Shown: positions 1-47,226 of the stretch, piece after piece
Layout of the letters: each line of letters opens with the position of its first letter
Numbering within the stretch: the first letter of the stretch is position 1
Assembly: GCA_963663385.2 (NCBI GenBank)
Contig: CAXXXD010000002.1
Coordinates: 192,001-256,000 of the forward strand
Origin: Oceanispirochaeta sp.
GTDB taxonomy: Bacteria; Spirochaetota; Spirochaetia; DSM-2461
Length of the DNA stretch: 64,000 nt
Reading direction: 5' to 3'
The notes under the pieces: generated by a model
The model's input: only the letters and a program-made list of their open reading frames with translations
Told to the model about the DNA's origin: nothing
Databases searched by the model: none
Program-made: the position numbers and the translations under genes

Positions 1-899
1 TCGCCCGTCCCGGCATAGCGGTTCTTCATAATGTAATCGGTAGGTTTGTTATACACAACGCTGTCTTTGGGGATGGAAGAGGTAATCCACACATTACCGC
101 CTATTACGGTGTTGGCCCCTATGGTCGTATTGCCTCCCAGTATGGTGGCTCCCGAATAGATGGTAACGTTATCTTCCAGGGTGGGGTGGCGTTTCTTGTT
201 GGCATTTTCTTTTTTTACACTTAGAGCTCCCAGAGTCACCCCCTGGTAAATCTTTACATTTTTTCCGATTACCGTGGTCTCTCCGATAACAACCCCTGTG
301 GCATGGTCAATAAAAAAGGATTCTCCTATCTCTGCACCGGGGTGAATATCCACGCCGGTTTTTCTGTGAATATGCTCATTCATCATCCGGGGGATCAGGG
401 GAATGTCCATATTAAACAACTCGTGGGCCAGACGATGAACGGTTATGGCTTCCAGGCCGGGGTAGGAGAGGATAACCTCCTCTCTTGAGCGGGCGGCCGG
501 GTCCCCGTCCATGGCGGCTCTTACATCCAGAAGAGTTTTTTCCCTGATTTCCGGCAATTTCTCCAGAAACTCGAAGGTTCGTTTTCTGGCTTCCTCGCCG
601 CACTCTACCGGATTGAAGTCGTCATTTTCCCGGCAGCGGTATTCCAGGCTTTTCCGGATCTCCGCCATCAGACGGCTTCCGACACTTAAAAGTTTCTCCC
701 CCAGGTTGAAGGCCAGGTTCTCTTCCTCCAGCTGTTCATTCTCCTGAAACCCCGGGAAAATAATCGATTCAAGGGTTGTAATAATACCTATTACGCTCTG
801 GCGGGAGGGGAGATTCGGACCGTTCAGGTGATTGATTCCTTCCTTGATCCTGTAGGTTTTCATGATGCTTGTGGTGATGGTTTCGATACGGTTTATCAT
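1..899 (-). CDS. cysE: Serine O-acetyltransferase (3' end runs off the window)
   Basis: Hand translation from ATG 899 gives hexapeptide-repeat motifs GVDIHPGA, FFIDHATGVVIGET and KRHPTLEDNVTIYSGATILGG. ATGA overlap with the patatin stop. Confidence 0.9.
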   Translation of the reverse strand, partial: MINRIETITTSIMKTYRIKEGINHLNGPNLPSRQSVIGIITTLESIIFPGFQENEQLEEENLAFNLGEKLLSVGSRLMAEIRKSLEYRCRENDDFNPVECGEEARKRTFEFLEKLPEIREKTLLDVRAAMDGDPAARSREEVILSYPGLEAITVHRLAHELFNMDIPLIPRMMNEHIHRKTGVDIHPGAEIGESFFIDHATGVVIGETTVIGKNVKIYQGVTLGALSVKKENANKKRHPTLEDNVTIYSGATILGGNTTIGANTVIGGNVWITSSIPKDSVVYNKPTDYIMKNRYAGTG

Positions 900-3636: not shown

Positions 3637-4938
3637 ATGTTACAAACTGAAAACAGCTGCGGAGAATTCCTTCGTGCCAGACAGTATATTCCCGGAGGGG
3701 TGAACTCTCCTGTCCGTTCCTTTAACAGTGTGGGAGGCAGTCCGCTCTATATAGCATCCGGTTCCGGTGCTTATGTGGATGATATAGACGGGAACCGTTA
3801 CCTGGATTTTCTCGGTTCCTGGGGCCCCCTTATACTGGGGCACTCCCATCCCGCTATTGTCCGGGCGGTTAAAGAGGCCTGTGAAAAAGGGATGAGCTTC
3901 GGAGCTCCCACGGTAATCGAAACAGAGCTGGCGGAAAAAATAGTATCCATGGTTCCTTCCGTCGAAATGGTTAGAATGGTTAATTCCGGTACGGAAGCGA
4001 CCATGAGTGCCGTCCGCCTGGCGAGAGGCTATACCGGACGGGATCTGATTATTAAATTCGAGGGCTGTTATCACGGCCATGGCGACAGTTTCCTCATTTC
4101 AGCAGGATCAGGTGCCGCGACCCTCGGCATTCCCGACAGCCCCGGAGTAACCGCCGGAACGGCTGCGGATACGCTGGTTGCCCGCTATAACGACCTTTCT
4201 TCCGTCCGGGAGCTGTTCAGGAAGCATGAAGGGCGGATTGCCGCGGTGATTGTCGAACCTGTGGCCGGTAATATGGGAGTCGTTCCTCCCTGTGAGGGTT
4301 TTCTGGAGGGGCTGAGAGCGATTACTTCAGAAGAGGGGGCGCTGTTTATTCTGGATGAAGTCATGACCGGTTTCAGAGTCGCCCGGGGAGGCGCCCAGGA
4401 ATATTTCGGCATTACTCCCGATCTGACAACATTCGGTAAAATTATCGGAGGAGGGCTTCCTGTAGGGGCTTACGGCGGCAGGAAAGAAATTATGATGCAG
4501 ATAGCGCCGGCCGGCCCTGTGTATCAGGCGGGGACTCTTTCCGGAAATCCTCTGGCCTGTGCTGCAGGACTTGCTGCTCTCAGCGTTATAGACAGTGACA
4601 GCACCTTTTACGAAAAACTGGAGAAACGGTCTGCTCAGCTGGCCGATGGGATGAGGGATAACTGCCGCAGACTGGGTGTCCGCGGGGTACTCAACCGGGT
4701 CGGTTCCATGATGACTTTCTTTTTTACACCCTTAAGCCGTGTTTCCAATTACTATGAAGCGGCTCAGAATCAGGCCGATCTGTACGGAAGATTTTTTCAT
4801 CTGGCTCTGGAAGAGGGGGTGTATTTTGCGCCTTCCGCTTTTGAAGCGGCATTTGTTTCCGGTGTTCACACGGAGGATCATATACAGAAGGCTGTCAGGG
4901 CCCATTACAATGCTTTGAAAAGACTCTCCGTCTTATGA
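3637..4938 (+). CDS. hemL: Glutamate-1-semialdehyde 2,1-aminomutase
   Basis: IPGGVNSPVR, NSGTEATMSA, DEVMTGFR, FGKIIGGGLP, YQAGTLSGNP. Confidence 0.97.
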   Translation: MLQTENSCGEFLRARQYIPGGVNSPVRSFNSVGGSPLYIASGSGAYVDDIDGNRYLDFLGSWGPLILGHSHPAIVRAVKEACEKGMSFGAPTVIETELAEKIVSMVPSVEMVRMVNSGTEATMSAVRLARGYTGRDLIIKFEGCYHGHGDSFLISAGSGAATLGIPDSPGVTAGTAADTLVARYNDLSSVRELFRKHEGRIAAVIVEPVAGNMGVVPPCEGFLEGLRAITSEEGALFILDEVMTGFRVARGGAQEYFGITPDLTTFGKIIGGGLPVGAYGGRKEIMMQIAPAGPVYQAGTLSGNPLACAAGLAALSVIDSDSTFYEKLEKRSAQLADGMRDNCRRLGVRGVLNRVGSMMTFFFTPLSRVSNYYEAAQNQADLYGRFFHLALEEGVYFAPSAFEAAFVSGVHTEDHIQKAVRAHYNALKRLSVL

Positions 4939-6434
4939 GATATGTTCCTGTTGTTAAAAATACCTTTCCTGTCAGCCTGATCCTTGAGGGGAAGTCCTGC
5001 CTGGTCGTAGGAGGGGGAAAGGCTGCCGTCTGGAAAATTGAAAATCTCCTTACCGCCGGAGCCGCCGTTACGGTTATCAGTCCGGAACTGGGCGAACAGG
5101 CCGCCGCATTACATCTGGAGAGCAGATTTACCTGGATTAAGCGATTCTACAGTGAGACCGATCTGGAGGGCTTTTCCCTCGTTTACTGCGCCACCCCCGA
5201 TGCAGACTTGAATCGGTCGATCCTGGAGCAGTGCCGTCAGAAACGGATTCTCTGCTGCCCTGTCGACCGGAACTGGCCTGAAGGGGATTTTATGACTCCC
5301 GCCACCTTCCGCAAGGATGAACTGGCTATTTCCATCTCAACAGGCGGCGCTTCCTGCCGGCGATCCCGGCTGATCAAACAAAGCCTCTCCCGGCATGTGG
5401 ATCTGATTGATTCGGCGGATCTTATACTGATCGGGACCAGCCACAGTTATCTGCCTCTGAAAAAGAGAGAACCCTTCCATCTGGCAGGAAAAAAGCTGGA
5501 TTCTACAGGAAACATGCTGCATCACGTCTGGGGTGTTCATGAATTCCTGATCCTGAATACATGCAACAGGGTTGAGATCCTGGCGGTTGTCTCCAATGAT
5601 TCAAATGTTTACGCTCTGGTTCAGCGGATTTTGGGGTTTGATACTCTGGATAGGGACGAATACTACATCCACCGGGGATGGGATGCTTTTTCCCACTCCT
5701 GCACTTTGATGGCAGGTCTGTTTTCCCAGACGCCCGGCGAAAATCACATTGTTGCCCAGGTCAAAGAAGCTCTGCATATGGCAGTACAGTCATCCTGGGC
5801 CGGCGTGGTTCTGGAAGACTGGATCAGCCGTGCTCTGGGTGTTTCCAAAAAAATCCGCCGGGAATCATCGCCTCTGCTGAAAAACATCGAAATAGAAGAT
5901 GTGGCCGTTGAGTATATTTACCGGACACTCGAAAAAAAACAGGGTTTACGTAAGGCTATGGTTATCGGTACGGGAATTATAGGGACGGGTGTGCTGGAGA
6001 AATTCCTGATACGGAATATCCCTGTCCTCTGGTGCTACCACCGCTATATCCCCGGGATGACTGCTTCCATGAAAGAAAAGGTGGAGCTCTTTTCTCTTGC
6101 GGATCTGAATAAACGGATAGCCGAGTGCGACTGTGCTGTTACGGCTACCGGCAGCTCTGAGTATCTGCTTGATGAAGAACACCTGGAATATTTTCCGGAG
6201 GATAAACAGACCCTCCTGGTAGATCTGTCTCTTCCGCGGAATATTTCTCCCGAACTGAACCGGCCGGAGCAGGGTGTGGAGGTTTTTGATCTGGATGATT
6301 TAAAACACTGGTTCCGCCGGGAAATTGCGGATATGGATCATATTATGGAAGTGAGTCGGAAAATTATTGAGGAGAACAAAGACAGTTATGAAAGAATCTC
6401 AGGCAGCCTTCAAAGCCGGCACCCGCGGCAGTAA
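4935..6434 (+). CDS. hemA: Fusion: precorrin-2 dehydrogenase/chelatase (CysG-N/SirC/Met8-like) plus glutamyl-tRNA reductase
   Basis: N-terminal LVVGGGKAA...ISTGGAS (CysG-N). C-terminal LNTCNRVE, GENHIVAQVK, VIGTGIIG, DLSLPRNI (HemA). Confidence 0.88.
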   Translation: MRYVPVVKNTFPVSLILEGKSCLVVGGGKAAVWKIENLLTAGAAVTVISPELGEQAAALHLESRFTWIKRFYSETDLEGFSLVYCATPDADLNRSILEQCRQKRILCCPVDRNWPEGDFMTPATFRKDELAISISTGGASCRRSRLIKQSLSRHVDLIDSADLILIGTSHSYLPLKKREPFHLAGKKLDSTGNMLHHVWGVHEFLILNTCNRVEILAVVSNDSNVYALVQRILGFDTLDRDEYYIHRGWDAFSHSCTLMAGLFSQTPGENHIVAQVKEALHMAVQSSWAGVVLEDWISRALGVSKKIRRESSPLLKNIEIEDVAVEYIYRTLEKKQGLRKAMVIGTGIIGTGVLEKFLIRNIPVLWCYHRYIPGMTASMKEKVELFSLADLNKRIAECDCAVTATGSSEYLLDEEHLEYFPEDKQTLLVDLSLPRNISPELNRPEQGVEVFDLDDLKHWFRREIADMDHIMEVSRKIIEENKDSYERISGSLQSRHPRQ

Positions 6435-8499
6435 TCTGGCGCTGGTACAGTCCGGAGACGCTCTGGACCGCCTTTCCAATCTGTTTCCCTTTCTGGCCTG
6501 GGAGCAGGTTCCCTTTTCCAGCCCGGGCGACCGGGACCGGAGGATGGATCTGAAAGTCAGTCCGGGCGACTTTTTCTCCCGCGATCTGGATGAAGCCGTT
6601 ATGGAAGCAGCGCTGGACTGCGCCATCCACAGTGCAAAGGACCTTTCCTATCCGCTCCGGGAGGAGCTGGACTGGTTCTGGCTGCCCTGGTCCGAAGATC
6701 CGGAGGATGCTCTTGTCTGCCGGAAGGGAGAGACCCCGGAGGATCTGCCTTCGGATGCCCTGATCGGTGTTTCCAGCGACCGGCGGGAGGAGTACTGCCG
6801 TTCCTTTTTTCCCTCTTTGGGAACCTCTCCCGTCCGGGGAAATATCGAACAGCGCCTGGAGCAGCTGGATGCGGGGCGTTACGATATGCTTATTATGGCA
6901 GCCGCGGCTCTGAACAGACTGGATCTGGAAGACCGGATTACTCAAGTGATCCCCTTAAAGGATCTGCCCGTTCCCGAAGGGCAGGGGATCCTGGCGCTTT
7001 CCTATCGAAGGGGGGATGCCCGATTTAACAGAATCCGGTCCTATTTTGTCAAACCCGTTCAATTTGTCGGTTCCGGGCCCGGCAGCGCGGCTCTCTGTAC
7101 GGTAAAAGGTGTGGAAGCTCTTCAGAACTGTGATATCTGTCTTTATGACTCCCTGGTTGATCCGGCCCTTCTCACACATGTAAAGGGGCGTTCCATTTAT
7201 ACCGGCAAGCGCAGCGGCCGGCACAGTTTCAAACAGGAAACCATTACCGGGATGATCAGTGAATATGCCCGTCAGGGGAAGCGGGTCGTTCGTCTGAAAG
7301 GGGGCGACCCCGGTATTTTCGGACGTCTGGCCGAGGAGGCGGAAGAGCTGGAATCTCTGGGACTGCCCTATGAAGTTATACCGGGAGTGAGCAGCTTGAA
7401 TGCCGCTACCACAGGGACGGGGATGCTCCTCACACGGCGGGAAATCTCCCGGGGGTACACGGTCATCAGCTCCAGAATAAAAGACGGCGGTATTGCCGAT
7501 ACCGAACAGAGTGTCCGCTCGAAACTGCCTATCGTTTTTTTTATGTCCCTGAAAGCTTCCGGTACCGTACTGGCCTCTCTGGTTGAAGAAGGGAGGAGTC
7601 CCGATGAACCGGCGGCTGTCGTATATAACGCCGGGAATCCGGAAGAGGAGGTTGTCCGGGGGACCATAGGGACCCTGGCCGATAAAATAGCCTGTTCGGG
7701 GAATCCCGGCCCCGGCCTGCTGATTGCCGGTGCCGTCACATCCTATGGGTTTGATGGTAATCAGGGGGCCCTGGAAGGAACGCGTGTCCTTCTTACCTGC
7801 AGTGAGAACCTGATGGACCAGGCGGTCCGCCAGGTGGTTCAGCAGGGGGGAAAGCCTGTCAGACGGAGCCTTGTCCGTCTGGAGAGAACCCTGTATCAGT
7901 TGGATCCGGAGCGGTATGACTGGCTGGTTCTGACCTCTCCCTCAGCGGTTCACTTCTGTATGGAGATTCTGAAGGAACAACGGAGTGATCTCAGAAGGCT
8001 CCCGAAGATTATGGTTTGCGGAAAGGCTTCCGGAAAAACCCTGGAGGAGTATGGCCTCTATGCAGACCTCTGCCCTGTTTCCGCTTATGGGGCGGATCAG
8101 TTGATAGCCGCTGCAACTGGCGTTATTAAAACCGGCGACAGGGTTCTGCGGCTTCGTTCCGAAAAAGCTTCCGGAAAAATTACGGAGGCTTTGAAATCCT
8201 GCGGCGCAGAGGTGACCGACCGAATCCTTTATGCCAGCAAAGCGGTTTCCGCAGGAGCTCTGCCCGAGGTGGAGACTGTCTTTTTTGCCAGCACATCTGC
8301 TGTCGAGGCTTATGCTGAACAGTGGGGGCTTCACTCGCTGAAGGGGAAAACCGTTCTTGCCATCGGGGAGCCTACTTTCGAATCTCTGGAAAGCCGGGGG
8401 GTGTCGCCTATCCTTAAAGCCCATGAGGCCACCATACCCGGAGCTATCCGTACTCTGGCCCTTTATCAGATAAAAAACCGATTGGAGGCGCTGATATGA
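6388..8499 (+). CDS. hemC-cobA-hemD: Triple fusion: hydroxymethylbilane synthase (domains 1-2), uroporphyrinogen-III C-methyltransferase, uroporphyrinogen-III synthase
   Basis: GTRGSNLA, HSAKDL, SSDRR, RGNIEQRL, GQGILAL (HemC); VGSGPG, RLKGGDPGIFGR, IPGVSS (CobA); LVLTSPSAV, FASTSAV, AIGEPT (HemD). ATG 6388 preferred over TTG 6367. Confidence 0.9.
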   Translation: MKESQAAFKAGTRGSNLALVQSGDALDRLSNLFPFLAWEQVPFSSPGDRDRRMDLKVSPGDFFSRDLDEAVMEAALDCAIHSAKDLSYPLREELDWFWLPWSEDPEDALVCRKGETPEDLPSDALIGVSSDRREEYCRSFFPSLGTSPVRGNIEQRLEQLDAGRYDMLIMAAAALNRLDLEDRITQVIPLKDLPVPEGQGILALSYRRGDARFNRIRSYFVKPVQFVGSGPGSAALCTVKGVEALQNCDICLYDSLVDPALLTHVKGRSIYTGKRSGRHSFKQETITGMISEYARQGKRVVRLKGGDPGIFGRLAEEAEELESLGLPYEVIPGVSSLNAATTGTGMLLTRREISRGYTVISSRIKDGGIADTEQSVRSKLPIVFFMSLKASGTVLASLVEEGRSPDEPAAVVYNAGNPEEEVVRGTIGTLADKIACSGNPGPGLLIAGAVTSYGFDGNQGALEGTRVLLTCSENLMDQAVRQVVQQGGKPVRRSLVRLERTLYQLDPERYDWLVLTSPSAVHFCMEILKEQRSDLRRLPKIMVCGKASGKTLEEYGLYADLCPVSAYGADQLIAAATGVIKTGDRVLRLRSEKASGKITEALKSCGAEVTDRILYASKAVSAGALPEVETVFFASTSAVEAYAEQWGLHSLKGKTVLAIGEPTFESLESRGVSPILKAHEATIPGAIRTLALYQIKNRLEALI

Positions 8500-9518
8500 A
8501 CCGATACCCTGATGTCAGACTGAGACGACTGAGAAAAACTCCATCAGTCAGAAGACTTTTTGACAGTCCCCTGCCGGGACCCGAGAAGTTTATCTGGCCC
8601 CTTTTTGTTGCGGAGGGAACCGGGAAAAGGGAGGCCATTGATGCCATGCCCGGTCAGTTCCGGCTCAGTACGGATAAAATATGCCGGGAAGTGGAAGCTT
8701 CTGTGAATCAGGGGCTCGGCGGTGTTCTCCTTTTCGGTTTAACAGAACAGGAGAATAAGGACCCCGTCGGAACCGGAGCCTGTGATGATCACGGAGCTGT
8801 TCAGGATGCTGTAAGAGTTCTGAAAAAAGAGTTTCCCCATCTGGTGGTTATGACGGATGTCTGCCTCTGTGCCTATACCTCTCATGGACATTGCGGTCCT
8901 TTAAATCCGGAAGGGGATGTGGACAATGATCTGACCCTGCCCCGGCTGGCGCAAACCGCCTTGTCCCATGTACGGGCCGGGGCGGACGGCGTGGCTCCCA
9001 GCGCCATGATGGACGGACAGGTACAGGCTATCCGCAGAGCACTGGATGAAGGCGGGTATCAGGATACCCTACTGATGAGCTATTCCACAAAATTCGCCTC
9101 TTCCCTGTACGGCCCTTTTCGCGAAGCGGAGCAGTCCGCTCCGGGAAAGGGCGACCGTCAGGGGTATCAGCAGTCCTATCGGGACCCCAGGCAGGCTATC
9201 CGGGAATCCCTGTTTGATGAAGACGAAGGCGCGGATATCCTGATGGTGAAGCCGGCTCTCTTTTACCTGGACATTCTTTCGAAACTGCGGGAGCAGACCG
9301 ACCTGCCTCTGGCCGCCTACAATGTCAGCGGGGAGTATTCCATGATTCATGCCGCTGCGGACAGGGGCTGGGGCGACTTGAGGGCCATGGCCCGGGAGTC
9401 GATTTGTGCCATATCAAGGGCGGGAGCGGATCTGATTATATCCTACTGGGCAAACCGGTATAAAGATTTGTTTCTGGACTCTTCATTTCATCCTTATGAA
9501 CTGATCAATTGTATATAA
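8496..9518 (+). CDS. hemB: Porphobilinogen synthase (Cys-liganded Zn type)
   Basis: RLRRLR, DVCLCAYTSHGHCG, APSAMMDG, YSTKFASSLYGPFREA, MVKPA, YNVSGEY. Confidence 0.97.
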   Translation: MNRYPDVRLRRLRKTPSVRRLFDSPLPGPEKFIWPLFVAEGTGKREAIDAMPGQFRLSTDKICREVEASVNQGLGGVLLFGLTEQENKDPVGTGACDDHGAVQDAVRVLKKEFPHLVVMTDVCLCAYTSHGHCGPLNPEGDVDNDLTLPRLAQTALSHVRAGADGVAPSAMMDGQVQAIRRALDEGGYQDTLLMSYSTKFASSLYGPFREAEQSAPGKGDRQGYQQSYRDPRQAIRESLFDEDEGADILMVKPALFYLDILSKLREQTDLPLAAYNVSGEYSMIHAAADRGWGDLRAMARESICAISRAGADLIISYWANRYKDLFLDSSFHPYELINCI

Positions 9519-10563
9519 CCACTTTGTTCCGGCCGCTGTTTTTTGCTTCATAGAGAGCAATATCAGCTTTTGACATCATCTCATTAAAGGTCCGGAAATT
9601 TTCGGAAAACCGGATAACCCCTAAACTGACTGTAATATTGAATTTCTTCTTATCTGCTTTGAAAGAGATTTCACTGACTGTCATTCTTATCATTTCAGCT
9701 ATATCGCCGGCTGTCTCTAATGTCGTATTTCTAAGGATAAGACCGAATTCTTCCCCACCATGTCTTCCGAAGATATCCTCTGCTCGAATTTTTTTTCTGA
9801 TAGTGTCTGAAAAATCAATCAGGACTGTATCCCCGACATCATGGCCGTGTGTATCGTTTATGATTTTAAAGTGGTCAATATCCATGACTATTAAGCTGAA
9901 ACTGTAGCCGTATTTTCGGGCTAATTCAAACTCGAGTTCTCCCTGGTAGAAAAAACTCCGTCTGTTTGCTGACTGAGTCAGGGGATCTGTATTTGCCAAA
10001 TATTCTAGTTCATTGCTTTTTTTCGCAAGTGCGAGTGAAGAAATAAAGAATATAAAAAATGTAGTACCAATACTCGTTATTACCGAGAAAGCCGATAGTA
10101 TATTTACAGCAGTCGCATTAATCTCAAATATGTAAAAATTAATCTTAAAGTAGCTGCTGATCACATACAGGATTTGACAGGCAACTGTTATTATTAACGA
10201 AAAGTGTCGTTCCGACTTGTTTAGAAGATCCATTATGGTAAATGAAGTAATTGGTATTATGAAATAAAACAGGTCATATTTTGTATCAGGGGGAAACCAG
10301 AAGAAAGCTGCCAATGTAAGTTGTATGAAAAATGTAATGACTATTCCGTATTTTACAAACCTGTATCTTTTTGCTTTAACCAGTGGAAAAAGGAGCAGGT
10401 GAAATATAATATACAGGATATGAACGATAATGGCCGGTAGGAATCTTGCCCAGATAATATAGATGCAGAGGAAGATAAATGCAGAAATCGTAACAGCGGT
10501 GATAATGATATTCAGCAGTAATTCTGTATGATCAGGTTCATTAAATAAGGCAAGTTTCTTCAT
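9505..10563 (-). CDS. Membrane-anchored diguanylate cyclase
   Basis: About 6 hydrophobic helices, then TDPLT, DIDHFKIINDTHGHDVGD, RAED (I-site RxxD), GGEEF, AKNSGRN. Visibly AT-richer than its neighbours. Confidence 0.92.
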   Translation of the reverse strand: MKKLALFNEPDHTELLLNIIITAVTISAFIFLCIYIIWARFLPAIIVHILYIIFHLLLFPLVKAKRYRFVKYGIVITFFIQLTLAAFFWFPPDTKYDLFYFIIPITSFTIMDLLNKSERHFSLIITVACQILYVISSYFKINFYIFEINATAVNILSAFSVITSIGTTFFIFFISSLALAKKSNELEYLANTDPLTQSANRRSFFYQGELEFELARKYGYSFSLIVMDIDHFKIINDTHGHDVGDTVLIDFSDTIRKKIRAEDIFGRHGGEEFGLILRNTTLETAGDIAEMIRMTVSEISFKADKKKFNITVSLGVIRFSENFRTFNEMMSKADIALYEAKNSGRNKVVIYN

Positions 10564-30843: not shown

Positions 30844-30958
30844 AGGGGTATTGTAACAAACAACGGCTTGATCTGCCCAGATGATAGAAGGGGATTCCTC
30901 CCTGTTCTGTTGATACTTCTTCCGCCTGCAGGTAATATAGTAAAAAATCTCACTATTC

Positions 30959-31045
30959 AGGCAAAGAAAAAACACAGCCCCGCAGGTAGTCCGGGCGGTC
31001 GTCTATTACGGCTCAGTAACCATCGCAAGATGTCCGTCTTTGTCT
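30959..31045 (+). ncRNA. yjdF (azaaromatic-sensing) riboswitch
   Basis: P1 GGCAAAGA/TCTTTGTC encloses AAAAAACAC, GGTAGTCCGG, TCAGTAACC and GATGTCC, blocks I recall from the yjdF motif. Directly upstream of a DUF2992-like gene. Confidence 0.85.
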
Positions 31046-31072
31046 CCAGGAAAGGAATATCCGGAGGCAAAT

Positions 31073-38661: not shown

Positions 38662-40185
38662 ATGACAAAGAATACCTACATTAAAAACGGATTTGTATCG
38701 GAAAATACATTTCGCACCGCGAATGAGATACCCGCAGAGATCCCTGAGTTTAAAAAATCAAAAAACGATCTGCCCCAGCCTTACTGGAAAGGGCATGATA
38801 AAGAGATCGGCATGTACTGGAAGTCCTGGGAAATCGGCTTCAGCCATCTGAAAAAACCGACGCCTCAGAATGGATTCCTCAGCAGCTACCTCGATACGGC
38901 TTATAACGGGAATATATTTATGTGGGATTCGGTTTTCATCTCCCATTACTGCCGTTACGGGATCCGTGTTTTCCCTTTTCAGCAAACTCTGGACAACTTC
39001 TACAGAAAACAGCATCTGGACGGTTTTATCTGCCGTGAAATCTATGGGGAGAGCGGTGAAGATGCTTTTCAGCGTCATGATCCGGCCAGTACAGGCCCCA
39101 ATGTCTTTGCCTGGAGTGAAATGGAATACTATAAGGCTTTCGGAGACAAAGAACGGCTTAACAGTGTTTTTCCCGTTCTCTGCGGTTTTCATGAGTGGCT
39201 GAAGGAAAACCGGACATGGAAGGACGGCAGCTACTGGACAAGCGGATGGGGGAGCGGTATGGATACCGTCCCGCGCCTGCCCGAAGGACGGCATGTCAAT
39301 TTCAGTCACGGTCATATGTCATGGATCGATGCCTGTCTTCAGCAGTATATGGATGCTCAAATTCTTATCCAGATGGGGTTTGAGCTGGAGCGCTGGCAGG
39401 AAATCGAGGGAATCGAAGAGGAGATTCAGACTCTGGGAGACTTTATCCGGCAAAACATGTGGGACAATGATGAGGGATTCCTCTTTGATCTGTTAGCCGA
39501 CGGTTCCAGGGTCGACTGCAAGCATATCGGCGCTTTCTGGGCGCTGCATTCCGATGTGCTGGGAGAGAAGGAAAAAGCCGCAATGATCAGGAATCTGCAG
39601 AAAGGCGGAACTTTTGATCATAAATATATCATCCCCTCTCTGGATCCGGATCATCCCCGGTTCCGTTCAAACGGCCGCTACTGGCAGGGCGGAGTATGGG
39701 CTCCCACCAACTACATGATTTTCTCGGGCCTGCAGAAATCGGGAGAGGCCGAGCTGGCGCACAAACTGGGGAAAAGGCATCTGGAGCATGTTCTCGGAGT
39801 CTTTCAGAAGACCGGAACATTCTGGGAATACTACTCTCCCGATGAGGTTGAACCGGGATTCCTGGCCCGGCCGGATTTTGTAGGCTGGACAGGTCTTGTT
39901 CCGATCTCTGTTCTCTTTGAGCAGGTTATGGGAATCCGTCCGGATTACAGCAGGAAGGAAATCCACTGGGACCTGTTCCTGACGGAAGAGCATGGTATCG
40001 ACAAGTATCCCTTCGGACCGGCCCATACCCTCAACCTCAGGGCTGCCGGCCGTTCCAAAGCAGCGGATGCTCCTGTGATCAGCGTGGAATGTCAGGAGGA
40101 GATTACCCTGATCCTCCGCTGGAACGGAAAAGAGGAACGGCATACTCTTAAAAAGGGAAAGCATACAATCAATCCCGGGGGCTGA
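38662..40185 (+). CDS. (alpha/alpha)6 glycoside hydrolase, GH63/MGH1-like
   Basis: FMWDS, GSGMD..PR, YWQGGVWAPTNY, FWEYY, FVGWTG. Confidence 0.8.
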   Translation: MTKNTYIKNGFVSENTFRTANEIPAEIPEFKKSKNDLPQPYWKGHDKEIGMYWKSWEIGFSHLKKPTPQNGFLSSYLDTAYNGNIFMWDSVFISHYCRYGIRVFPFQQTLDNFYRKQHLDGFICREIYGESGEDAFQRHDPASTGPNVFAWSEMEYYKAFGDKERLNSVFPVLCGFHEWLKENRTWKDGSYWTSGWGSGMDTVPRLPEGRHVNFSHGHMSWIDACLQQYMDAQILIQMGFELERWQEIEGIEEEIQTLGDFIRQNMWDNDEGFLFDLLADGSRVDCKHIGAFWALHSDVLGEKEKAAMIRNLQKGGTFDHKYIIPSLDPDHPRFRSNGRYWQGGVWAPTNYMIFSGLQKSGEAELAHKLGKRHLEHVLGVFQKTGTFWEYYSPDEVEPGFLARPDFVGWTGLVPISVLFEQVMGIRPDYSRKEIHWDLFLTEEHGIDKYPFGPAHTLNLRAAGRSKAADAPVISVECQEEITLILRWNGKEERHTLKKGKHTINPGG

Positions 40186-40212
40186 TAAGAATACGGAGAA
40201 AGTACTCTGTAC

Positions 40213-40249
40213 GGCTGGATGATCTGGTTATCGGGATGATCATCCAGCC
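40213..40249. terminator. Intrinsic terminator hairpin
   Basis: GGCTGGATGATC...GATCATCCAGCC followed by a T-rich tract. Confidence 0.65.
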
Positions 40250-40374
40250 TTTAGTTATTTTTTATATCCCCGGTTCAGACCTTCACCCCGTTAAATTCCT
40301 GAACAGCCTTAAACAGGGCTGCTATATTTACAACAGGATGCCTGAAAAAGAATCTTCTACCGGTATATATTTGA

Positions 40375-41580
40375 TTATTTATACACAGGGATCTTAATTT
40401 GAATCTGAAATAATTCGGTGTTTTTTACGAGGTATATCTCTCCGGAAAAATACTCCTCTACCAGATACCGTGAAGATGTAAGGCCCATTCCATAGTGATC
40501 CTGCTTTGTTGAGTAACCTTCCGTAAATAGAACTTCGGAATCATTCGTATTCTTTCCCGAATCTTTTAATGTCAGAAGGCAGTGTTTATCTTCTTCCTTC
40601 AGTTCCAAAACCACTTTTTCCGGTAAAAAATCATCACCCAGGCTATCTTTTGCATTATCCACAAGGGAAATCAGTATTTGATTAAGCAGAAAGGAATTCC
40701 CATTAATACATGTTTTATTAGAAACCATATTATTCAAAGATATTTTTACTGGCAGAACCGAATGTATGTTATTTATATAATCGTTTACATTAAAAGGGGA
40801 TATATCATAAACCGCAGGTTTATAATGAATGCTGTCAGTCAATATACATACGGATTTAACTAATTTCAGTATATCCTTCTCTATGGTTTTTATTGATTTC
40901 TGCAGTTCCGGATTCATTCTGATTTTTTGAATAATTTTCAGCTTATTCTCAATCGTCTGATCATCCCTGTAACCCCGATCTATTTTAAGTTTTTTTGATA
41001 TAAGGAGTTCTTCAAACTTCTTAATAAAATCCAGATAGAGAATCACGACTTTTCTTACTAACTCAATATTATTAGTTATCTTCGCCAACTTATCAGAAAT
41101 TGATTCCTTCATTGCTTTTGTGCATATATCATAGCAAAATAGCCTGTTTTGCATAAAATGCAATTCGGTAACATTATCATCGTCAGATACGGGTTCTGTT
41201 GTGCGACTTATACTGTTTTGTAAATTTTTTCTTATTCGTATAAGAACATCATCCTTTTCAAAAGGTTTTATAAGATAATCACTTGCTCCCAGACTCAATC
41301 CGCTTATTACGCTTTTTCTATCAGATTTGGCTGTAAGGAAAATAATGGGAATATCTTTGGTATCCTTATTAGATTTTAACTCTCTGCAAACTTCAAAACC
41401 ATCCATCTCCGGCATCATAATATCCAGAAGTATTAAATCAGGTGGTTTCTGGGAAATGCTTTTCATGGCTTTGTAACCGTCTGTAGCAAAATTGAGGGTA
41501 TAATCGTCTTTAAGGATATGCCCGAGAAGCTTCAGGTTATTTGGTGTATCATCAACTACCAGAATGTACTTTTTATCCAT
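40375..41580 (-). CDS. Receiver domain plus HATPase_c protein with no recognisable H-box
   Basis: VVDD, LLDIMMPEMDG, FLTA, KP (REC); LVDNAKD, DSG, LFTEGYSTK, GMGL (HATPase). Confidence 0.82.
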   Translation of the reverse strand: MDKKYILVVDDTPNNLKLLGHILKDDYTLNFATDGYKAMKSISQKPPDLILLDIMMPEMDGFEVCRELKSNKDTKDIPIIFLTAKSDRKSVISGLSLGASDYLIKPFEKDDVLIRIRKNLQNSISRTTEPVSDDDNVTELHFMQNRLFCYDICTKAMKESISDKLAKITNNIELVRKVVILYLDFIKKFEELLISKKLKIDRGYRDDQTIENKLKIIQKIRMNPELQKSIKTIEKDILKLVKSVCILTDSIHYKPAVYDISPFNVNDYINNIHSVLPVKISLNNMVSNKTCINGNSFLLNQILISLVDNAKDSLGDDFLPEKVVLELKEEDKHCLLTLKDSGKNTNDSEVLFTEGYSTKQDHYGMGLTSSRYLVEEYFSGEIYLVKNTELFQIQIKIPVYK

Positions 41581-41781
41581 CCCATTTCCTTTTTAATATG
41601 GTTTAATGTTCATTATTTGTTTTCTTATAATATTAAAAAAACATTTTAAGAATAGCAAATAGAAAATTACTATTTGAATAGACTGGATTTTAAAAAATGA
41701 AAACCATTATACTTTTAATAAGGATTCTGCAGTAATTACTACTGGGGATATTAATACTGAATAGTTAATAGAGATGCTGAT

Positions 41782-44667
41782 ATGAAAATTGACTCGATAA
41801 CAACATTGCCGTCACATATATTGAATTGCATTTATGAGAGTATACTGGTTGTTGATCAGAACAACAGGCTGAAATACTATAATCAGTCATTTGAGAATCT
41901 TCTCCTTCTGAGTTCTGATAATATATCAACAATCAAGGATCGGATACTTGGCGATATACTTCCTGCCAAAATGAGTGCAATTCCGGTAATGGCACAGCAA
42001 TGCATAAGTCGTGTTGAGGTTGTGCAGGGCATACTGGAGATTCAGATCCCGCCCCTTATCCAGTATTATAAAGTAGTAGCTATTCCCAATTTAATAGAAA
42101 AAGATAGGGTGGAAGCTATTATAATTCTAAATAACACAACAGATTACGAACTAAAGAAGAAAGAGCTGCATCAGCAGTTGGATTTTCTTTCAAAACTGGA
42201 AAAACGAATGCCCCTTGGTGTTTTCATGTTCGATTATGAAGATGACGACCCTATTGTAACCCTCTGGAATCCCATGATGGTAGAATATTTCGGGGTACAG
42301 GAGAAAGATATACTGGGAAACAGTATCCAGTGCAGTTTCAATAAAGATACAGTTTCCCGGTTATCAGCCGCCATCGAGGCAATTAAATCTACCGGGTTAT
42401 ATTATGATTCGCCTTCTGAAGAAATTGAAACTCCCCAGGGTGTCAGATCTTTTCATATCGTAATCACTCCGATAAAGGATATGAAACTTACTTCAAACAG
42501 CTACCTGTGCATTATGGAAGATATAACCATAAGGATTCGTCAAGAGAAAGAACTTCAGTATATGCATGAAATGTTAAAAGAGGCTCTTAGTCAGATTTCC
42601 GAGCAATTGGAGCAGACTGATGCAGAATTTTCATCGATTCTCGAGTCTTCTATTAATGTATGCATCTTTTCACTGGACAGGGATTTAAACTACCGTTTTT
42701 TTAATCCCTATCATGAAAAGTACATGATGTCACAATTTGGAATTGCTGCAGAAAAAGGGGAAAAGGCAAAATGTGTCAAGAAGTCTTCCTCAGAAAAGGG
42801 ACTGCCTATTCTCGAGTATATTGAACAGGCTCTGGGTGGAGAATCTCAGGCACTGCAAGTACATTTCCAGAATAAGGAGGGGCAGATCAACTATCTGAAT
42901 ACGGTTTTCTCTCCTTTGTATGATAATGGAATAATTACCGGTGTAACCGTATTGCTGTTTGATACGACAGCACAGAAACACACTGCTGAAAAAGCCGAGA
43001 TCTTCCAGTTTGTCGCTGATCATGCAGAGTACGGTGTTATATTGGTAAACAAGGATTTTTCTGTTAACTATATTAATCCATTTGGGGAAACCCAGTTCGG
43101 GCTTCCATCCGATGAAATAATCGGCAATAAAGTGGACCTGTTATTTTCAGAAAGGCACAGAGAAAATATCCTGAAATCCCTGGATAAGACACTAAAGGGG
43201 ACAGTTCAGAATGAATTGCAAGTTGATTTGACAGACCAGTCTGATGAAACCGTTAATATCATGTTGAATTTTGTTCCCTATGGTGATCTTGAACACCAGG
43301 CGGGAGGTATTGCTATTACCTGCCTGGATGTTTCAACCCTTGAACAGGCTAAAAATACATTGATTCAGGCAAAGGATAGGGCGGAAGAGGCATCCATTCA
43401 AAAAAGTACTTTTGTTGCCAATATGAGCCATGAGTTCAGAACACCCCTCAATGCCATCCTTGGATTTTCATCCCTGTTAAAAGGGGAAATCCATGACACG
43501 GTTCTAAAGAGCCACGTAGATAGTATCATATCCAGTGGTACGGTATTGAAAAAACTGGTAAACGAAGTGTTGGATTTTTCCAAAATCGAGGCTGGTAAAA
43601 TGGAAATCCAGATCACAAAAGTTAATGTTTATGAGTTCTTTAAGGAAATATTCAGGATCTTTCAGCTTCAGTTTCATAATAAGAGTATTGACTTTGAAAT
43701 CTTCAGTAAGGAGCCTGTTCCGGAGTTTCTGTATTTTGATCAGTTACGTTTACAACAGGTTTTGATTAATCTGATAAATAATGGATTAAAATTTACACAG
43801 TACGGTTGCGTGAAGGTTATTTTTAAGTACATTGATAACAAAAAGATACTGCTGCTTAATGTTGAAGACAGCGGTATCGGTATTGCCGGGGATGATCAGA
43901 GCCGTGTTTTCGAATCATTTGAACAGAGAGAAAAAGAGAACACCCGGGTTTATGAGGGAACCGGATTAGGCTTGACAATTACAGAAAAGCTTCTGTCTTT
44001 GATGAAAGGCTCCATAAGGTTGAAGAGTGACATAGGAGCAGGATGTTCTTTTGCGCTGAAAATCCCCATGGCTGTGGAAGAAAATACAGAATCCCTTTCG
44101 ATTCATCTGCATGAGCCCCTTACTGTTAACAAAGTGATTTCCTGTTATGTGGAAAGACCTTTGATAACTCCGACTATGATGAAATTCGGTAAACGGAAAG
44201 GGATCCGTTTTCTTCCCTTTGATGGAATCCACGAGTTTCAGGCTGCAGAATATATGAAAATCCTTACCGGTAATTCAGAGATTTCGTTTGTAGATGAAAG
44301 CAAAGTAATAAGGATCTATAGAGAATACAGTAACGATTTCAAGCCTTCCGATTATGAGTTCTACTGCCTGTCGCAGGCTATGCCCGAGATAAAACGCCTT
44401 CACTTTATTTATAGTATTCTTATTTATGAGGATGGCCGTGTAAAAAAGAAACAAATCAATTTCAGTAATATTGATCAAACTGAGTTTGAGATGCTTAAAA
44501 AAGCCGTGGATTTAAAAATATTCAGTGATATTGAAGAATCCCTGCCTATTATTTATAAGTGTGAAGATGAAAACCATTATTACTCCGAACAAATTGAAGA
44601 GGCTATCTTAGTTTTCGACATCCCTAAACTGGAGAATATAATGAATAAGATGGCAACAATGTTTTAA
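41782..44667 (+). CDS. Cytoplasmic multi-PAS sensor histidine kinase
   Basis: About 4 PAS-like repeats; NMSHEFRTPLNAI, DFSKIEAG, NLINNGLKFT, DSGIGI, GTGLGL. Confidence 0.9.
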   Translation: MKIDSITTLPSHILNCIYESILVVDQNNRLKYYNQSFENLLLLSSDNISTIKDRILGDILPAKMSAIPVMAQQCISRVEVVQGILEIQIPPLIQYYKVVAIPNLIEKDRVEAIIILNNTTDYELKKKELHQQLDFLSKLEKRMPLGVFMFDYEDDDPIVTLWNPMMVEYFGVQEKDILGNSIQCSFNKDTVSRLSAAIEAIKSTGLYYDSPSEEIETPQGVRSFHIVITPIKDMKLTSNSYLCIMEDITIRIRQEKELQYMHEMLKEALSQISEQLEQTDAEFSSILESSINVCIFSLDRDLNYRFFNPYHEKYMMSQFGIAAEKGEKAKCVKKSSSEKGLPILEYIEQALGGESQALQVHFQNKEGQINYLNTVFSPLYDNGIITGVTVLLFDTTAQKHTAEKAEIFQFVADHAEYGVILVNKDFSVNYINPFGETQFGLPSDEIIGNKVDLLFSERHRENILKSLDKTLKGTVQNELQVDLTDQSDETVNIMLNFVPYGDLEHQAGGIAITCLDVSTLEQAKNTLIQAKDRAEEASIQKSTFVANMSHEFRTPLNAILGFSSLLKGEIHDTVLKSHVDSIISSGTVLKKLVNEVLDFSKIEAGKMEIQITKVNVYEFFKEIFRIFQLQFHNKSIDFEIFSKEPVPEFLYFDQLRLQQVLINLINNGLKFTQYGCVKVIFKYIDNKKILLLNVEDSGIGIAGDDQSRVFESFEQREKENTRVYEGTGLGLTITEKLLSLMKGSIRLKSDIGAGCSFALKIPMAVEENTESLSIHLHEPLTVNKVISCYVERPLITPTMMKFGKRKGIRFLPFDGIHEFQAAEYMKILTGNSEISFVDESKVIRIYREYSNDFKPSDYEFYCLSQAMPEIKRLHFIYSILIYEDGRVKKKQINFSNIDQTEFEMLKKAVDLKIFSDIEESLPIIYKCEDENHYYSEQIEEAILVFDIPKLENIMNKMATMF

Positions 44668-44814
44668 TACAGTATTTATTACTGCTTCGGGTATAATTAC
44701 TGATACTGCTGTTCTGATACCAAGAAAGCAAGATTTGTCTTTGTTTCTCTCTACTGTCTGATGTTCCAGATATTCCCTTTATAGAAGACTGTTCTTTACT
44801 TGATCCGGGAGGAC

Positions 44815-45825
44815 TCATTTGGAACAGGATGTTCCCCGTCTAATCTGATGAGGCAGAATCCGGGTATAGGATGTTAAATCTTTCTTATCTTTTTCATCGG
44901 ATTCAATCAGTTCCAGCAGTGTCCGGGTTGCTTTTAATGTAATCTCTTCAATCGGCTGGTTTATGGTGGTAAGGGACGGGACCATATATTTTCCTATTTC
45001 TATGCCGTCATAGCCGATAATATCTATATCCTTACCGATTTTCAGACCCATGGAAGTAATTGTTTTATAACCACCTATTGCCATCTCATCATTTACATAA
45101 AAAAGAGCTGTCAATTCAGGGTGTTTCTGCAGAAGCTCTTTTGTAACTTTTTCTCCTGAGTCAAGGGAGAAAGATCCGGGCAGGAGGTAGTCCGGATTAA
45201 ATGGTATTCCGGTATTTTTCAATGCATCCCTGTAGCCTGCAACCTGAGGGTCCTTACTGCTTTCTTTGAATGCATTACTGCAGATCATGCCTATTTTTCT
45301 ATGATTCAGGGATGTAAGAAGGCTTACGCCATCGAATACAGCTTTCCGTGGGTTGATGTAATAAGCGGGCCATTTCAGTTCGGGAATATTGATGGCACAC
45401 TGGACAACGGGGATTTTACTGGAATTAATATGATTATTAATATTCTCCGAATAGGATTCATGGCAGAGAATAATTCCGTCAACCTCTTTTTGTTGAAGGA
45501 GATTAAGATAGCTCAGCTCTGAATTATCATTGTCCTTTATACTGCAGACTATCAGTTTATATCCTTTTTCTTCCAGATGGGTTTCCAGAAGGTTGAACAG
45601 TCTCTGGTGAAATATGCCCGAGACCTGTGGCAATAACAGTCCTATCAGATTGGTTCTGCCCAGGACCATACTGCGTGCGGTATGATCCGGAACATAGTTC
45701 TCTCTGGCAATGGTTTCTCTCACTTTCCTTTCCAGTTCGGGACTTACAGCTTTTGTTCCGTTGAGAACCCTTGAAACAGTAGAGATTGAAACCCCGGACA
45801 TTCGTGCGATATCTTTTATTCCCAT
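44815..45825 (-). CDS. LacI-family repressor
   Basis: IKDIARMSGVSISTVSRVLN, NDEMAIG, GYDG, PSLTTINQP. Confidence 0.95.
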   Translation of the reverse strand: MGIKDIARMSGVSISTVSRVLNGTKAVSPELERKVRETIARENYVPDHTARSMVLGRTNLIGLLLPQVSGIFHQRLFNLLETHLEEKGYKLIVCSIKDNDNSELSYLNLLQQKEVDGIILCHESYSENINNHINSSKIPVVQCAINIPELKWPAYYINPRKAVFDGVSLLTSLNHRKIGMICSNAFKESSKDPQVAGYRDALKNTGIPFNPDYLLPGSFSLDSGEKVTKELLQKHPELTALFYVNDEMAIGGYKTITSMGLKIGKDIDIIGYDGIEIGKYMVPSLTTINQPIEEITLKATRTLLELIESDEKDKKDLTSYTRILPHQIRRGTSCSK

Positions 45826-45862
45826 GATCCTATTATTGGGGGAAAACTGGATTTAATCAATA

Positions 45863-45897
45863 GGAAAAGGTTTTCCCTTGACAGGAAAAGGTTTTCC
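45863..45897. promoter_or_regulatory. Two identical LacI-type operators flanking a -35 box
   Basis: GGAAAAGGTTTTCC at 45863-45876 and 45884-45897, with TTGACA at 45878-45883 between them. Confidence 0.85.
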
Positions 45898-45939
45898 TAT
45901 GTATCCTTGGATTTAGATAACAGCTATAAGGAGACAAAT

Positions 45940-47226
45940 ATGAAGAAGTATCTATTCGCCGCATTATGCGTGTTGCTGATTCCTTTTTTTCTAACTGCAG
46001 GAGGAAGTCAGGAAGCAGCCGGAATAACAGAGGATGGTGTAACTCTGGTTATGTGGGACCAGTTCTACAGAGGTGAAGAGAATACCATCATGGAGAAAAT
46101 CGTCAGGGAGTATGAACAGCAGAATGCGGGAGTTACAATCCAGAGGGACGCAAAAACACTGGATGATTTGAAACTGGTACTTCAGATGTCTGTTCAGGCC
46201 GGAACAGGGCCCGATATTATGCAATTGAATCAGGGAGAAGCCGATATGGGTGCTTTTGTAAAATCCGATCTGATTGCCAACCTGAATGAACAGGCCGTCA
46301 GCCTGGGATGGGAAGACAGACTTACCAAAGCCAATCTGAAATCCATGGGATATAAAGGTGATTATTACGGTGTTTCCGTTACTGGAGAGGTTGTAGGTTT
46401 CTTTTACAATAAAGCGCTCTTCCAGGAACTGGGCCTGACAATTCCTTCTACTCTTGAAGAGCTGGAAGTTCTTCTGGCAAAAGTAAAGGATGCCGGTTAT
46501 ACACCGATTAATTTTGGAAATCTGGACGGCTGGACAGGTATCCATGAATGGTCATCACTGCAGCATGTCATGACAACCAGAAGTGAGCTGGACGATATGA
46601 TGAGTGGAAAATCCGGTGCTTTCTGGAGTGTCCCTGCCAATAAAGCTTCTGCCGATAAACTTGTTTCCTGGGTGGAAAAAGGTTACTTTACCAAGGACTT
46701 TTCAGCGATCGGGTATGATGATTCCGCTACAGTTTTCTATCAGGGTGATTCTGCTCTTATGCTGACAGGAAACTGGCTGCAGGGTGAAATAGATGCCAAT
46801 GCTCCTTTTGATGCCGGATTCTTCCTTCTGCCGGCACCTGCCGCTTCTCAGGAAAATCTGAAGGCTGTAGGCGGACCCGGTATCCCCTTTGTTATTAACA
46901 AATCTACAAAGCATATGGATGAAGCTGTTGCCTTCCTGGATCTTCTGACTCAGGAAAAAACTGCTGTGAAATGGGCTGAAAGCGCTATGCTGCCCGCCCT
47001 TCCCATTTCAGAATCTTCCGTTCCAAATTCGGGAGAGCTTTTCAGGGATATTATGAAATGCTACAAGCAGGTAAATGAGAATAACGGAATCGGGTACTTT
47101 ATTGACTGGATTACCCCTACTTTTTATGACACCAGCTCGGCATCCGTACAGGAACTGATGGCTCAGGATATCGACTCTGACACATTTGTTAAAAACCTGC
47201 AGACCGATTACAACGACTTTTATTAA
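45940..47226 (+). CDS. Carbohydrate ABC (CUT1) substrate-binding protein
   Basis: AAGGAG RBS; signal peptide ending AGGSQE; GPDI, FFYNKALF, GNW. Confidence 0.9.
   Translation: MKKYLFAALCVLLIPFFLTAGGSQEAAGITEDGVTLVMWDQFYRGEENTIMEKIVREYEQQNAGVTIQRDAKTLDDLKLVLQMSVQAGTGPDIMQLNQGEADMGAFVKSDLIANLNEQAVSLGWEDRLTKANLKSMGYKGDYYGVSVTGEVVGFFYNKALFQELGLTIPSTLEELEVLLAKVKDAGYTPINFGNLDGWTGIHEWSSLQHVMTTRSELDDMMSGKSGAFWSVPANKASADKLVSWVEKGYFTKDFSAIGYDDSATVFYQGDSALMLTGNWLQGEIDANAPFDAGFFLLPAPAASQENLKAVGGPGIPFVINKSTKHMDEAVAFLDLLTQEKTAVKWAESAMLPALPISESSVPNSGELFRDIMKCYKQVNENNGIGYFIDWITPTFYDTSSASVQELMAQDIDSDTFVKNLQTDYNDFY

Follow-up and report, generated by a model that had tools for sequence, protein, structure and literature searches.

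Every hydroxymethylbilane synthase (HemC in bacteria, HMBS in human) characterised to date is described in the accessible part of a 2026 haem review in Chem Rev (PMC13564367, where the enzyme is named HmbS) as binding a dipyrromethane cofactor via a conserved cysteine; that part of the review does not mention cysteine-less forms. According to the available text of PMC10773753, a frameshift variant of human HMBS that has lost domain 3 and C261 is unstable and retains almost no activity. Fusions among the enzymes around this step are known. HemC/HemD and CobA/HemD fusions are listed in the available portion of PMC4921024 as channelling unstable intermediates, HemC/HemD around hydroxymethylbilane. 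The HemC-HemD enzyme of Leptospira interrogans is reported to have dual activity, as cited in the accessible text of bioRxiv 10.1101/2021.02.09.429727, and the HemD of Clostridium saccharobutylicum is described as a CobA-HemD fusion in that of bioRxiv 10.1101/342006. A full-text literature search found no description of a natural HemC without domain 3; most subscription journals lay outside its coverage, so a description in print is possible. The subject of this report is such a HemC. It forms the first module of a hemC-cobA-hemD fusion gene in a 64,000-nucleotide stretch of Oceanispirochaeta sp. (assembly GCA_963663385.2, contig CAXXXD010000002.1, positions 192,001 to 256,000 of the forward strand), referred to below as the window.

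The HemC module of this fusion consists of domains 1 and 2 only, and it belongs to a large, separate group of two-domain HemCs. An earlier note on the same DNA had treated the missing domain as the peculiarity of one protein, a view that the homologues do not uphold. The group includes proteins whose C-terminus is free, with no CobA attached, and not one cysteine is common to all its members; the module therefore most likely does not carry the canonical thioether-anchored dipyrromethane. Here the textbook porphobilinogen deaminase reaction probably follows a route that has so far gone undescribed.

Domain architecture of the fusion protein

The open frame occupies 6367..8499 on the forward strand and encodes 710 residues counted from the TTG at 6367; residue numbers throughout are counted from this codon and not from the ATG at 6388. 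The ATG is the likely start, giving 703 residues, because a GAGGAG precedes it by 10 nt and the closest homologues share this length. The start of the gene overlaps the 3' end of the preceding sirC-hemA gene (6434) by 47 nt. The features of the fusion gene, all on the forward strand, are as follows.

6388..8499 (+), hemC(domains 1-2)-cobA-hemD fusion gene, 703 residues, from Pfam and NCBIfam profiles
6412..7026 (+), HemC module, domains 1 and 2 of hydroxymethylbilane synthase, residues 16-220, from PF01379, the mapping to E. coli HemC and the structural match to 1pda
6568..6573 (+), D68-F69 in the active-site lid, a signature of the two-domain group; canonical forms have Gly-(Leu/Ile/Val) after Lys (E. 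coli K59-G60-L61)
6640..6642 (+), D92, equivalent of the catalytic D84 in the E. coli alignment, present in 121 of 121 fusions
7027..7056 (+), junction NRIRSYFVKP, residues 221-230, the end of the last domain-1 helix and a short linker; canonical HemC enters domain 3 here
7057..7746 (+), CobA (uroporphyrinogen-III C-methyltransferase) module, residues 231-460, from TIGR01469, aligned to CysG 218-445
7096..7098 (+), C244 in the CobA glycine loop GSGPGSAALCT (CysG L231), a subclade-specific candidate for an alternative anchor, in 113 of 121 fusions
7138..7140 (+), C258 in CobA strand 2, CDICLYD (CysG V245), three residues before D261, in 120 of 121 fusions and 16 of 19 wider fusions
7825..8448 (+), HemD (uroporphyrinogen-III synthase) module, residues 487-694, from PF02602

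The earlier note, made from the letters of the window alone, claimed that the HemC module lacks domain 3, and the profiles bear this out. Porphobil_deam (PF01379) matches residues 16-220 with 158.7 bits against a cut-off of 22.1, whereas Porphobil_deamC (PF03900) has no match in the protein, even at E<=1. The rest of the chain is matched by TP_methylase (PF00590; residues 232-438) and HEM4 (PF02602; residues 487-694, 113.9 bits against 27.5). TIGR00212 (hemC) reaches 172.7 bits against a cut-off of 164, covering only model positions 2-211 of 293. In a phmmer comparison with the PDB sequences, residues 16-222 align with E. coli HemC 7-214, and the alignment ends there.

Thirteen residues (218-230) separate ...YRRGD217 from V231 of VQFVGSGPG, strand 1 of CobA. 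The short junction described in the earlier note is thus real; the length of about 10 residues that it gave is not exact. The longest stretch outside the family models is 461-486 (26 residues), and therefore the chain has no room for a displaced domain 3 of about 75-90 residues. Alignments to homologues and to E. coli HemC reveal no cofactor-cysteine loop ER...GGC..P at the HemC-CobA junction; the cofactor cysteine of E. coli HemC is C242 in the numbering of the earlier note. Contigs from three runs of three studies cover 6388-7300 with 0 gaps, in agreement with the note's claim that no frameshift is involved. Two of these contigs are nearly identical, and this DNA may derive from them.

Conservation of the active site

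The catalytic aspartate and the arginines that the earlier note had listed as retained can be mapped residue by residue to E. coli HemC. The equivalences are R20=R11, Q28=Q19, F70=F62, K91=K83, D92=D84, S137=S129, R139/R140=R131/R132, R157=R149, R163=R155, R184=R176 and Q206=Q198. In an alignment of the fusion protein with its 120 best fused homologues (A2; mean column identity about 50%), R139, R140, R157, R163, R184, K91 and D92 are invariant in all 121 sequences. R20 is kept in 120, the sole exception being a gap. This pattern of residues is consistent with a module under selection to bind pyrroles and to catalyse, and not with one in decay.

The other two modules resemble their families, with one deviation. 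The CobA module passes TIGR01469 (cobA_cysG_Cterm) with 205.6 bits against a cut-off of 185, and its D261, equivalent to CysG D248, is kept in 121 of 121 fusions. Its glycine loop deviates from GxGPGD and reads GSGPGS, with S240 where CysG has D227; among the 121 fusions this position is S in 88, T in 10 and D in 7. The HemD module aligns with 4es6 over 229 residues (Z 16.6, root-mean-square deviation [rmsd] 2.5 A).

Distribution and phylogeny of two-domain HemCs

The HemC part of the fusion is matched by 643 proteins of 390-1243 residues. The best 120 of the 643 all combine PF01379, PF00590 and PF02602, and none has PF03900. Their source names include Spirochaetales, Kiritimatiellia, Rhodothermales and other metagenome-assembled genomes (MAGs). 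The junction aligns gap-free across these listed homologues and is common to 120 of 120, which answers the earlier note's question of whether homologues share it.

A search with the module only against 1.84 billion cluster representatives gave 11,016 matches at E<=0.001, 133 of them at E<=1e-30. The best 150 representatives were sorted with local hidden Markov models (HMMs) for domain 3, CobA, HemD, SirC and HemA. The resulting architectures, with HemC12 standing for domains 1 and 2, are listed below.

HemC12-CobA-HemD, 65 of 150 (one with a cut module)
SirC-(HemA)-HemC12 or HemA-HemC12, with the module C-terminal, 27 of 150
HemC12-HemD, 10 of 150
HemC12 alone, 9 of 150
HemC12-CobA, on short contigs, 5 of 150
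canonical HemC12 with domain 3, 25 of 150
fragments, 9 of 150

Two-domain HemC thus occurs in at least four architectures, and 116 of the 150 nearest cluster representatives are without domain 3. Among these best 150, domain 3 is never combined with CobA or HemD, in agreement with a Pfam scan of 14, and the local domain-3 model has no match in the 65 tri-fusion representatives. The C-terminal modules of the SirC-(HemA)-HemC fusions end after a short tail; therefore, the two-domain module exists with nothing fused behind it. In P0243-P0302 this end lies about 16 residues after domain 2 and has a conserved tail, PLDLGDRxGLPWA, which could act as a docking peptide. In Alistipes-type fusions, a linker of similar sequence, P(L/M)D..RR..G, stands in front of CobA.

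A maximum-likelihood tree was built from domains 1 and 2 only, leaving out the columns of the trait itself, with 43 rows picked from the search matches (22 short and 21 canonical). The 22 short forms split from the 21 canonical forms on a single branch (support 100/94), and the fusion protein falls within a 12-row tri-fusion clade (100/99). The short side includes the protein's own subclade of Spirochaetota, Lentisphaerota and related MAGs, a second fusion subclade with Alistipes putredinis, Candidatus Termititenax and a Spirochaetes MAG, stand-alone forms from Omnitrophota, and a set matching NCBIfam NF002202.

The two sides of this branch also differ in three alignment columns. D68 is found in 20 of 22 short forms, where 17 of 21 canonical forms have Gly (E. 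coli G60); among the 121 tri-fusions the residue is Asp in 113 and Asn in 8. F69 is found in 19 of 22 short forms, and canonical forms have Leu, Ile or Val. A181 is found in 20 of 22, against Gly (E. coli G173) in 20 of 21 canonical forms. The Lys of E. coli position 59 is not retained in the short forms. The HSAKD motif is no discriminator in this 43-row sample, whose canonical rows were picked with a scan pattern that biases them. D68 was considered as an ester-forming nucleophile; with Asn in 8 of 121 it is unlikely to be a general anchor, and it is kept as a group signature only.

Two Omnitrophota loci keep the order sirC, hemA, short hemC, cobA, hemB, with hemA fused to hemC in one of them. 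The cobA of these loci is separate, and its start overlaps the end of the unfused short hemC. Thus, short HemC and CobA travel together whether fused or not. In Actinomycetes MAGs (L049, L080), an ordinary CobA is joined to a full-length HemC with GGGC, so fusion itself does not require the loss of domain 3. Among HemCs of canonical length that have domain 3, P0275 and P0298 read GGGN or an acidic DREDRG stretch at the position of the GGC cysteine. The lack of the cysteine may therefore not be limited to two-domain enzymes.

The only HemC of the genome

The genome (5.3 Mb in 4 contigs, 98.13% complete) contains a single PF01379 match, the fusion gene. A search of the entire genome in six frames scored 10 candidates and found no PF03900 match at E<=10. 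The fusion is also the genome's only SUMT above cut-off and its only HEM4 match. By these profile searches, the single chain of the fusion is predicted to provide the cell with its sole hydroxymethylbilane synthase, its sole uroporphyrinogen-III synthase and its sole uroporphyrinogen-III methyltransferase.

Relatives present the same picture. Among 38 genomes of the order, PF01379 is found in 13, and in 12 of these it lies in open reading frames (ORFs) of 643-749 residues. The remaining one, G018, has an ordinary hemC in a 316-residue ORF with PF03900 (66 bits), the sole PF03900 above cut-off in the order. None of the 12 fusion genomes has a canonical hemC; PF03900 appears there only at noise level, in G009 (E 0.71) and G037 (E 0.147-0.447). 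A wider sample of the phylum comprised 201 genomes, each at least 90% complete. In this sample, 42 genomes are of canonical type, with PF03900 above cut-off in 41 and always in the same ORF; 29 have HemC-HemD fusions, all in one family (f17); and 15, G000 included, have ORFs of tri-fusion size (620-714 residues). These 15 genomes have no second PF01379 match and no PF03900 at E<=0.01.

The HemC-HemD fusions of family f17 differ from the tri-fusion. L082-L084 (G139, G164, G122) and L085 (G194), of 517-603 residues, keep ER...GGGC or GAGC after domain 2. The same four proteins fail or nearly fail PF03900, some far below the cut-off, and their domain 3 appears to be strongly diverged or shortened.

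Cysteine candidates

No cysteine is invariant across the 121 tri-fusions. The counts are 62 for C85, 102 for C144, 113 for C244, 64 for C255, 120 for C258, 106 for C478 and 112 for C551. C85 was rejected as an anchor: it is present in only 62 of the 121, and close relatives have L, I, A, F or V in its place. Among 19 fusions compared there is no column that holds only cysteine. Position 244 is Ala in Victivallis (L006) and L031 and Leu in L027, L037 and L068; position 258 is Ile in the last three. The unfused CobAs of Omnitrophota have Ile and Val at the positions of C244 and C258. The stand-alone and C-terminal HemC modules share no cysteine column in the aligned rows, and in a further alignment (A3) the cofactor-cysteine motif is present in canonical rows and missing from all short rows.

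Structure prediction

An AlphaFold2 model of the fusion, built on A2, has a pLDDT of 92.4 and a pTM of 0.89. Its alignments with HemC structures (VIA-align) are as follows.

E. coli HemC 1pda, Z 22.4, rmsd 1.8 A, 210 residues aligned, model 12..257 with chain 3..284
Arabidopsis 4htg, Z 23.6, rmsd 1.7 A, 217 residues aligned, model 12..307 with chain 10..295
Vibrio 5h6o, Z 19.0, rmsd 2.0 A, 198 residues aligned, model 13..228 with chain 10..226

In the model, some elements of the N-terminal half of CobA are predicted to coincide in space with parts of domain 3. When HemC 8-228 and CobA 229-465 were predicted as separate chains, the median ipSAE of three runs was 0.59, and the best of three controls scored 0.00. 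The runs share at least 96% of their contacts, with a partner pLDDT of at least 83. Calibration put 116 of 157 solved complexes and 2 of 215 mismatched pairs at or above the ipSAE mark; passes at 0.60 or under comprise only 18 of the 157 solved complexes, plus both passing mismatches.

Genomic context

The fusion gene lies in a cluster for tetrapyrrole and cobamide synthesis.

3637..4938 (+), hemL (glutamate-1-semialdehyde aminomutase), first gene of the cluster, PF00202 269.7 bits
4935..6434 (+), sirC (precorrin-2 dehydrogenase-like) fused to hemA (glutamyl-tRNA reductase), PF13241, PF05201 and PF01488, TIGR01470 and TIGR01035
8496..9518 (+), hemB (porphobilinogen synthase), which would supply the substrate of the HemC module, PF00490 423.6 bits
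10846..16964 (+), anaerobic corrin genes cbiA, cbiC, cbiD, cbiL, cbiF, cbiG and cbiH, from profile matches, which would consume the product of the fusion

Since hemA, hemL and hemB are adjacent, porphobilinogen is expected to be made here and needs a consumer. From this context, we infer that the fusion feeds the adjoining cobamide pathway. In the 38 genomes of the order, cbiD is above cut-off in 13, namely 11 of the 12 fusion genomes, G018 and G021 (71% complete). The genome has 29 matches of the URO-D family, 28 of them above cut-off and most partial over the model; one lies at 55829-56392 (+). They suggest an expansion of paralogues of the corrinoid-dependent methyltransferase type and heavy use of corrinoids.

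One opposite-strand gene stands between hemB and cbiA. It occupies 9505-10563 (-), and its 352-residue product has a diguanylate-cyclase-like GGEEF motif as well as several hydrophobic segments. The sirC-hemA product has no GlutR_dimer (PF00745) match at E<=1, and TIGR01035 covers only positions 2-336 of 416. HemA, which follows a SirC-like NAD-binding domain in the chain, is thus a second enzyme of the cluster in which a fusion partner seems to have taken the place of a C-terminal domain; in relatives the chain extends to SirC-HemA-HemC12. Despite the hem-cbi cluster, no cobalamin riboswitch was found at gathering score in the 64-kb window. Its only Rfam match is an azaaromatic (yjdF) riboswitch aptamer at 30956-31053 (+), with 59.7 bits against a gathering score of 45. 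Elsewhere in the window, 40001-46000 has a G+C of 0.355-0.394 against about 0.45-0.56 in the remainder and may be a foreign island.

Discussion

Conservation and context together argue that the HemC module is catalytically active. On balance, it is probable that the bilane is built on a primer without the canonical thioether, held in the Arg/Asp cleft under the remodelled lid, with CobA closing the domain-3 side and HemD taking the product. The N-terminal half of CobA would pack against HemC domains 1 and 2, at the place that domain 3 has in the canonical enzyme. Either a non-covalently bound dipyrromethane would serve as the primer, or porphobilinogen itself would provide the first ring. The conserved cleft would hold this primer while the bilane grows, and the unstable product would then be handed to the fused HemD and CobA. 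Both the substitution of CobA for domain 3 and the chemistry of the primer are what we infer from the model and the alignments. A broader claim, that the whole two-domain group makes its linear tetrapyrrole without a covalent dipyrromethane, is tentative and rather doubtful. In that case porphobilinogen or a non-covalent bilane fragment would prime the reaction, and hydroxymethylbilane or aminomethylbilane would pass to HemD.

Several observations weigh against this account of a primer without the thioether. To our knowledge, primer-free or non-covalent chemistry has no experimental precedent for hydroxymethylbilane synthase. The residues aligned beyond domain 2 are few and lie on different helices in each PDB entry, so that CobA and domain 3 share a space and not a fold, and the prediction of the HemC/CobA complex was graded 'weak support' by the tool. 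G023 contains the fusion, and cbiD was not found in it. The 15 tri-fusions of the phylum sample were called by ORF size, with the sequence read for G000 and G066. L082-L085 keep their cysteine despite failing PF03900, and an HMM miss alone is therefore no proof of cysteine loss; for the fusion protein, the absence of the cysteine follows from the length of the 13-residue junction only and not from the HMM miss. Finally, each of the 121 fusions keeps at least one of C244 and C258 (both in 112, C258 only in 8, C244 only in 1).

This last observation leads to an alternative covalent anchor, in which the dipyrromethane is thioether-linked to C244 or C258 of CobA in this subclade. The two cysteines stand where CysG has L231 and V245. 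C244 lies 39 residues after the GQG motif, and the canonical E. coli cysteine lies, as we take it, 45 residues after the same motif. CobA occupies the domain-3 space in the model, and its docking as a separate chain is specific, within the grade given above. An anchor of this kind would leave other forms unexplained: domain-3-less fusions without C244 (L006, L031, L027, L037, L068), three of them also without C258; the 27 of 150 representatives whose chain stops about 16 residues past the module and has no CobA; and the Omnitrophota CobAs with Ile and Val at these positions. C258, moreover, falls at a strand position where CysG has a hydrophobic residue. A solution confined to a single subclade is possible and less parsimonious, and this anchor is unlikely. 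The proposal in the earlier note of a non-covalent or alternative-cysteine mechanism in a channelled fusion therefore survives in general terms, with the alternative-cysteine candidates confined to this subclade. A domain 3 supplied in trans, by a small protein that brings the cysteine-bearing loop and is too diverged for PF03900, is less probable still. A diverged domain 3 can escape HMM searches, and the free-C-terminus modules do have a conserved, docking-like tail (PLDLGDRxGLPWA). Nevertheless, the six-frame search of the genome was negative at E<=10, only G009 and G037 among the 12 fusion genomes of the order match PF03900 (all at E>=0.147), the cluster has no conserved small ORF, and the confident model places CobA in the position of domain 3.

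It is very improbable that the module is inactive or re-purposed, for example as a pyrrole-binding scaffold or regulator, with hydroxymethylbilane coming from an unrelated enzyme or from uptake. Loss of domain 3 does ruin the activity and stability of human HMBS (available text of PMC10773753), and some bacteria salvage tetrapyrrole precursors (accessible text of bioRxiv 10.1101/342006). Against this, the catalytic Asp, the Lys and all Arg are invariant in 121 of 121 fusions, the adjacent hemA, hemL and hemB would make porphobilinogen that needs a consumer, and the fusion co-occurs with cbiD in 11 of 12 genomes. No other HemC homologue was found here or in the 12 and 15 fusion-bearing relatives, and the earlier note's option of an inactive module backed up by another hemC fails on this point as well as on the invariant residues. 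An artefact deserves almost no weight. A frameshift, misassembly or recent deletion that removed domain 3 in this record only is refuted by the junction shared by 120 of 120 listed homologues, the gap-free contigs of three runs and three studies, and the 643-749-residue ORFs of relatives in the order.

If the broader claim, that the two-domain group works without a covalent dipyrromethane, is true, a much-studied tetrapyrrole step has a second mechanism, used by cobamide producers of several phyla and by short stand-alone forms presumed to be chlamydial. The two-domain HemC is the only deaminase in many genomes. Should it be active, the role of the covalent primer would need rethinking, and genome-based predictions of haem or B12 synthesis that demand a full-length HemC would miss producers. 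An active fusion would also offer pathway engineering a compact one-chain route from porphobilinogen to precorrin-2.

Comparison with known systems

Like canonical HMBS (E. coli HemC 1PDA/1AH5 and human HMBS), the fusion has domains 1 and 2, which superpose at 1.8 A over 210 residues with 33% identity, and it has the catalytic Asp, the adjoining Lys and the Arg equivalents of R11, R131, R132, R149, R155 and R176. Unlike canonical HMBS, its module is without domain 3 and the cofactor cysteine, is joined to CobA-HemD, and lies across the 100/94 branch. Its lid reads x-D-F-F where E. coli has K59-G60-L61-F62, and it has A181 in place of E. coli G173.

The closest named family is NF002202 (PRK01066), a model of 241 positions for a short HemC family that we take to be chlamydial. 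Both NF002202 and the module end just after domains 1 and 2, and both fall in the short-form group of the tree. P0167 (242 residues) scores 421.7 bits against NF002202, and P0159 is named Simkaniaceae by its source. The fusion's module scores 124.8 bits against a cut-off of 251 and is not a member of this equivalog; NF002202 proteins, unlike the module, stand alone. Database curators already name a short form 'hydroxymethylbilane synthase' (NF002202). We know of no biochemical study of the NF002202 short HemCs or of the fused two-domain module.

The C-terminal part of the fusion resembles CobA-HemD bifunctional proteins of the NF005524/PRK07168 type in its order, methyltransferase and then synthase. 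It differs from them in the two-domain HemC in front, and its NF005524 score is 156.5 against a cut-off of 603. The CobA loop reads GPGSAALCT, in contrast to GPGDAGLLT in CysG. The HemC-HemD fusions read in another Spirochaetota family (517-584 residues) differ in keeping ER...GGGC after domain 2. They were considered as a precedent for a cysteine-less deaminase and rejected, as L082-L085 keep GGGC or GAGC. What the fusion has in common with HemC-HemD proteins is that the deaminase is joined to the enzyme that takes its unstable product.

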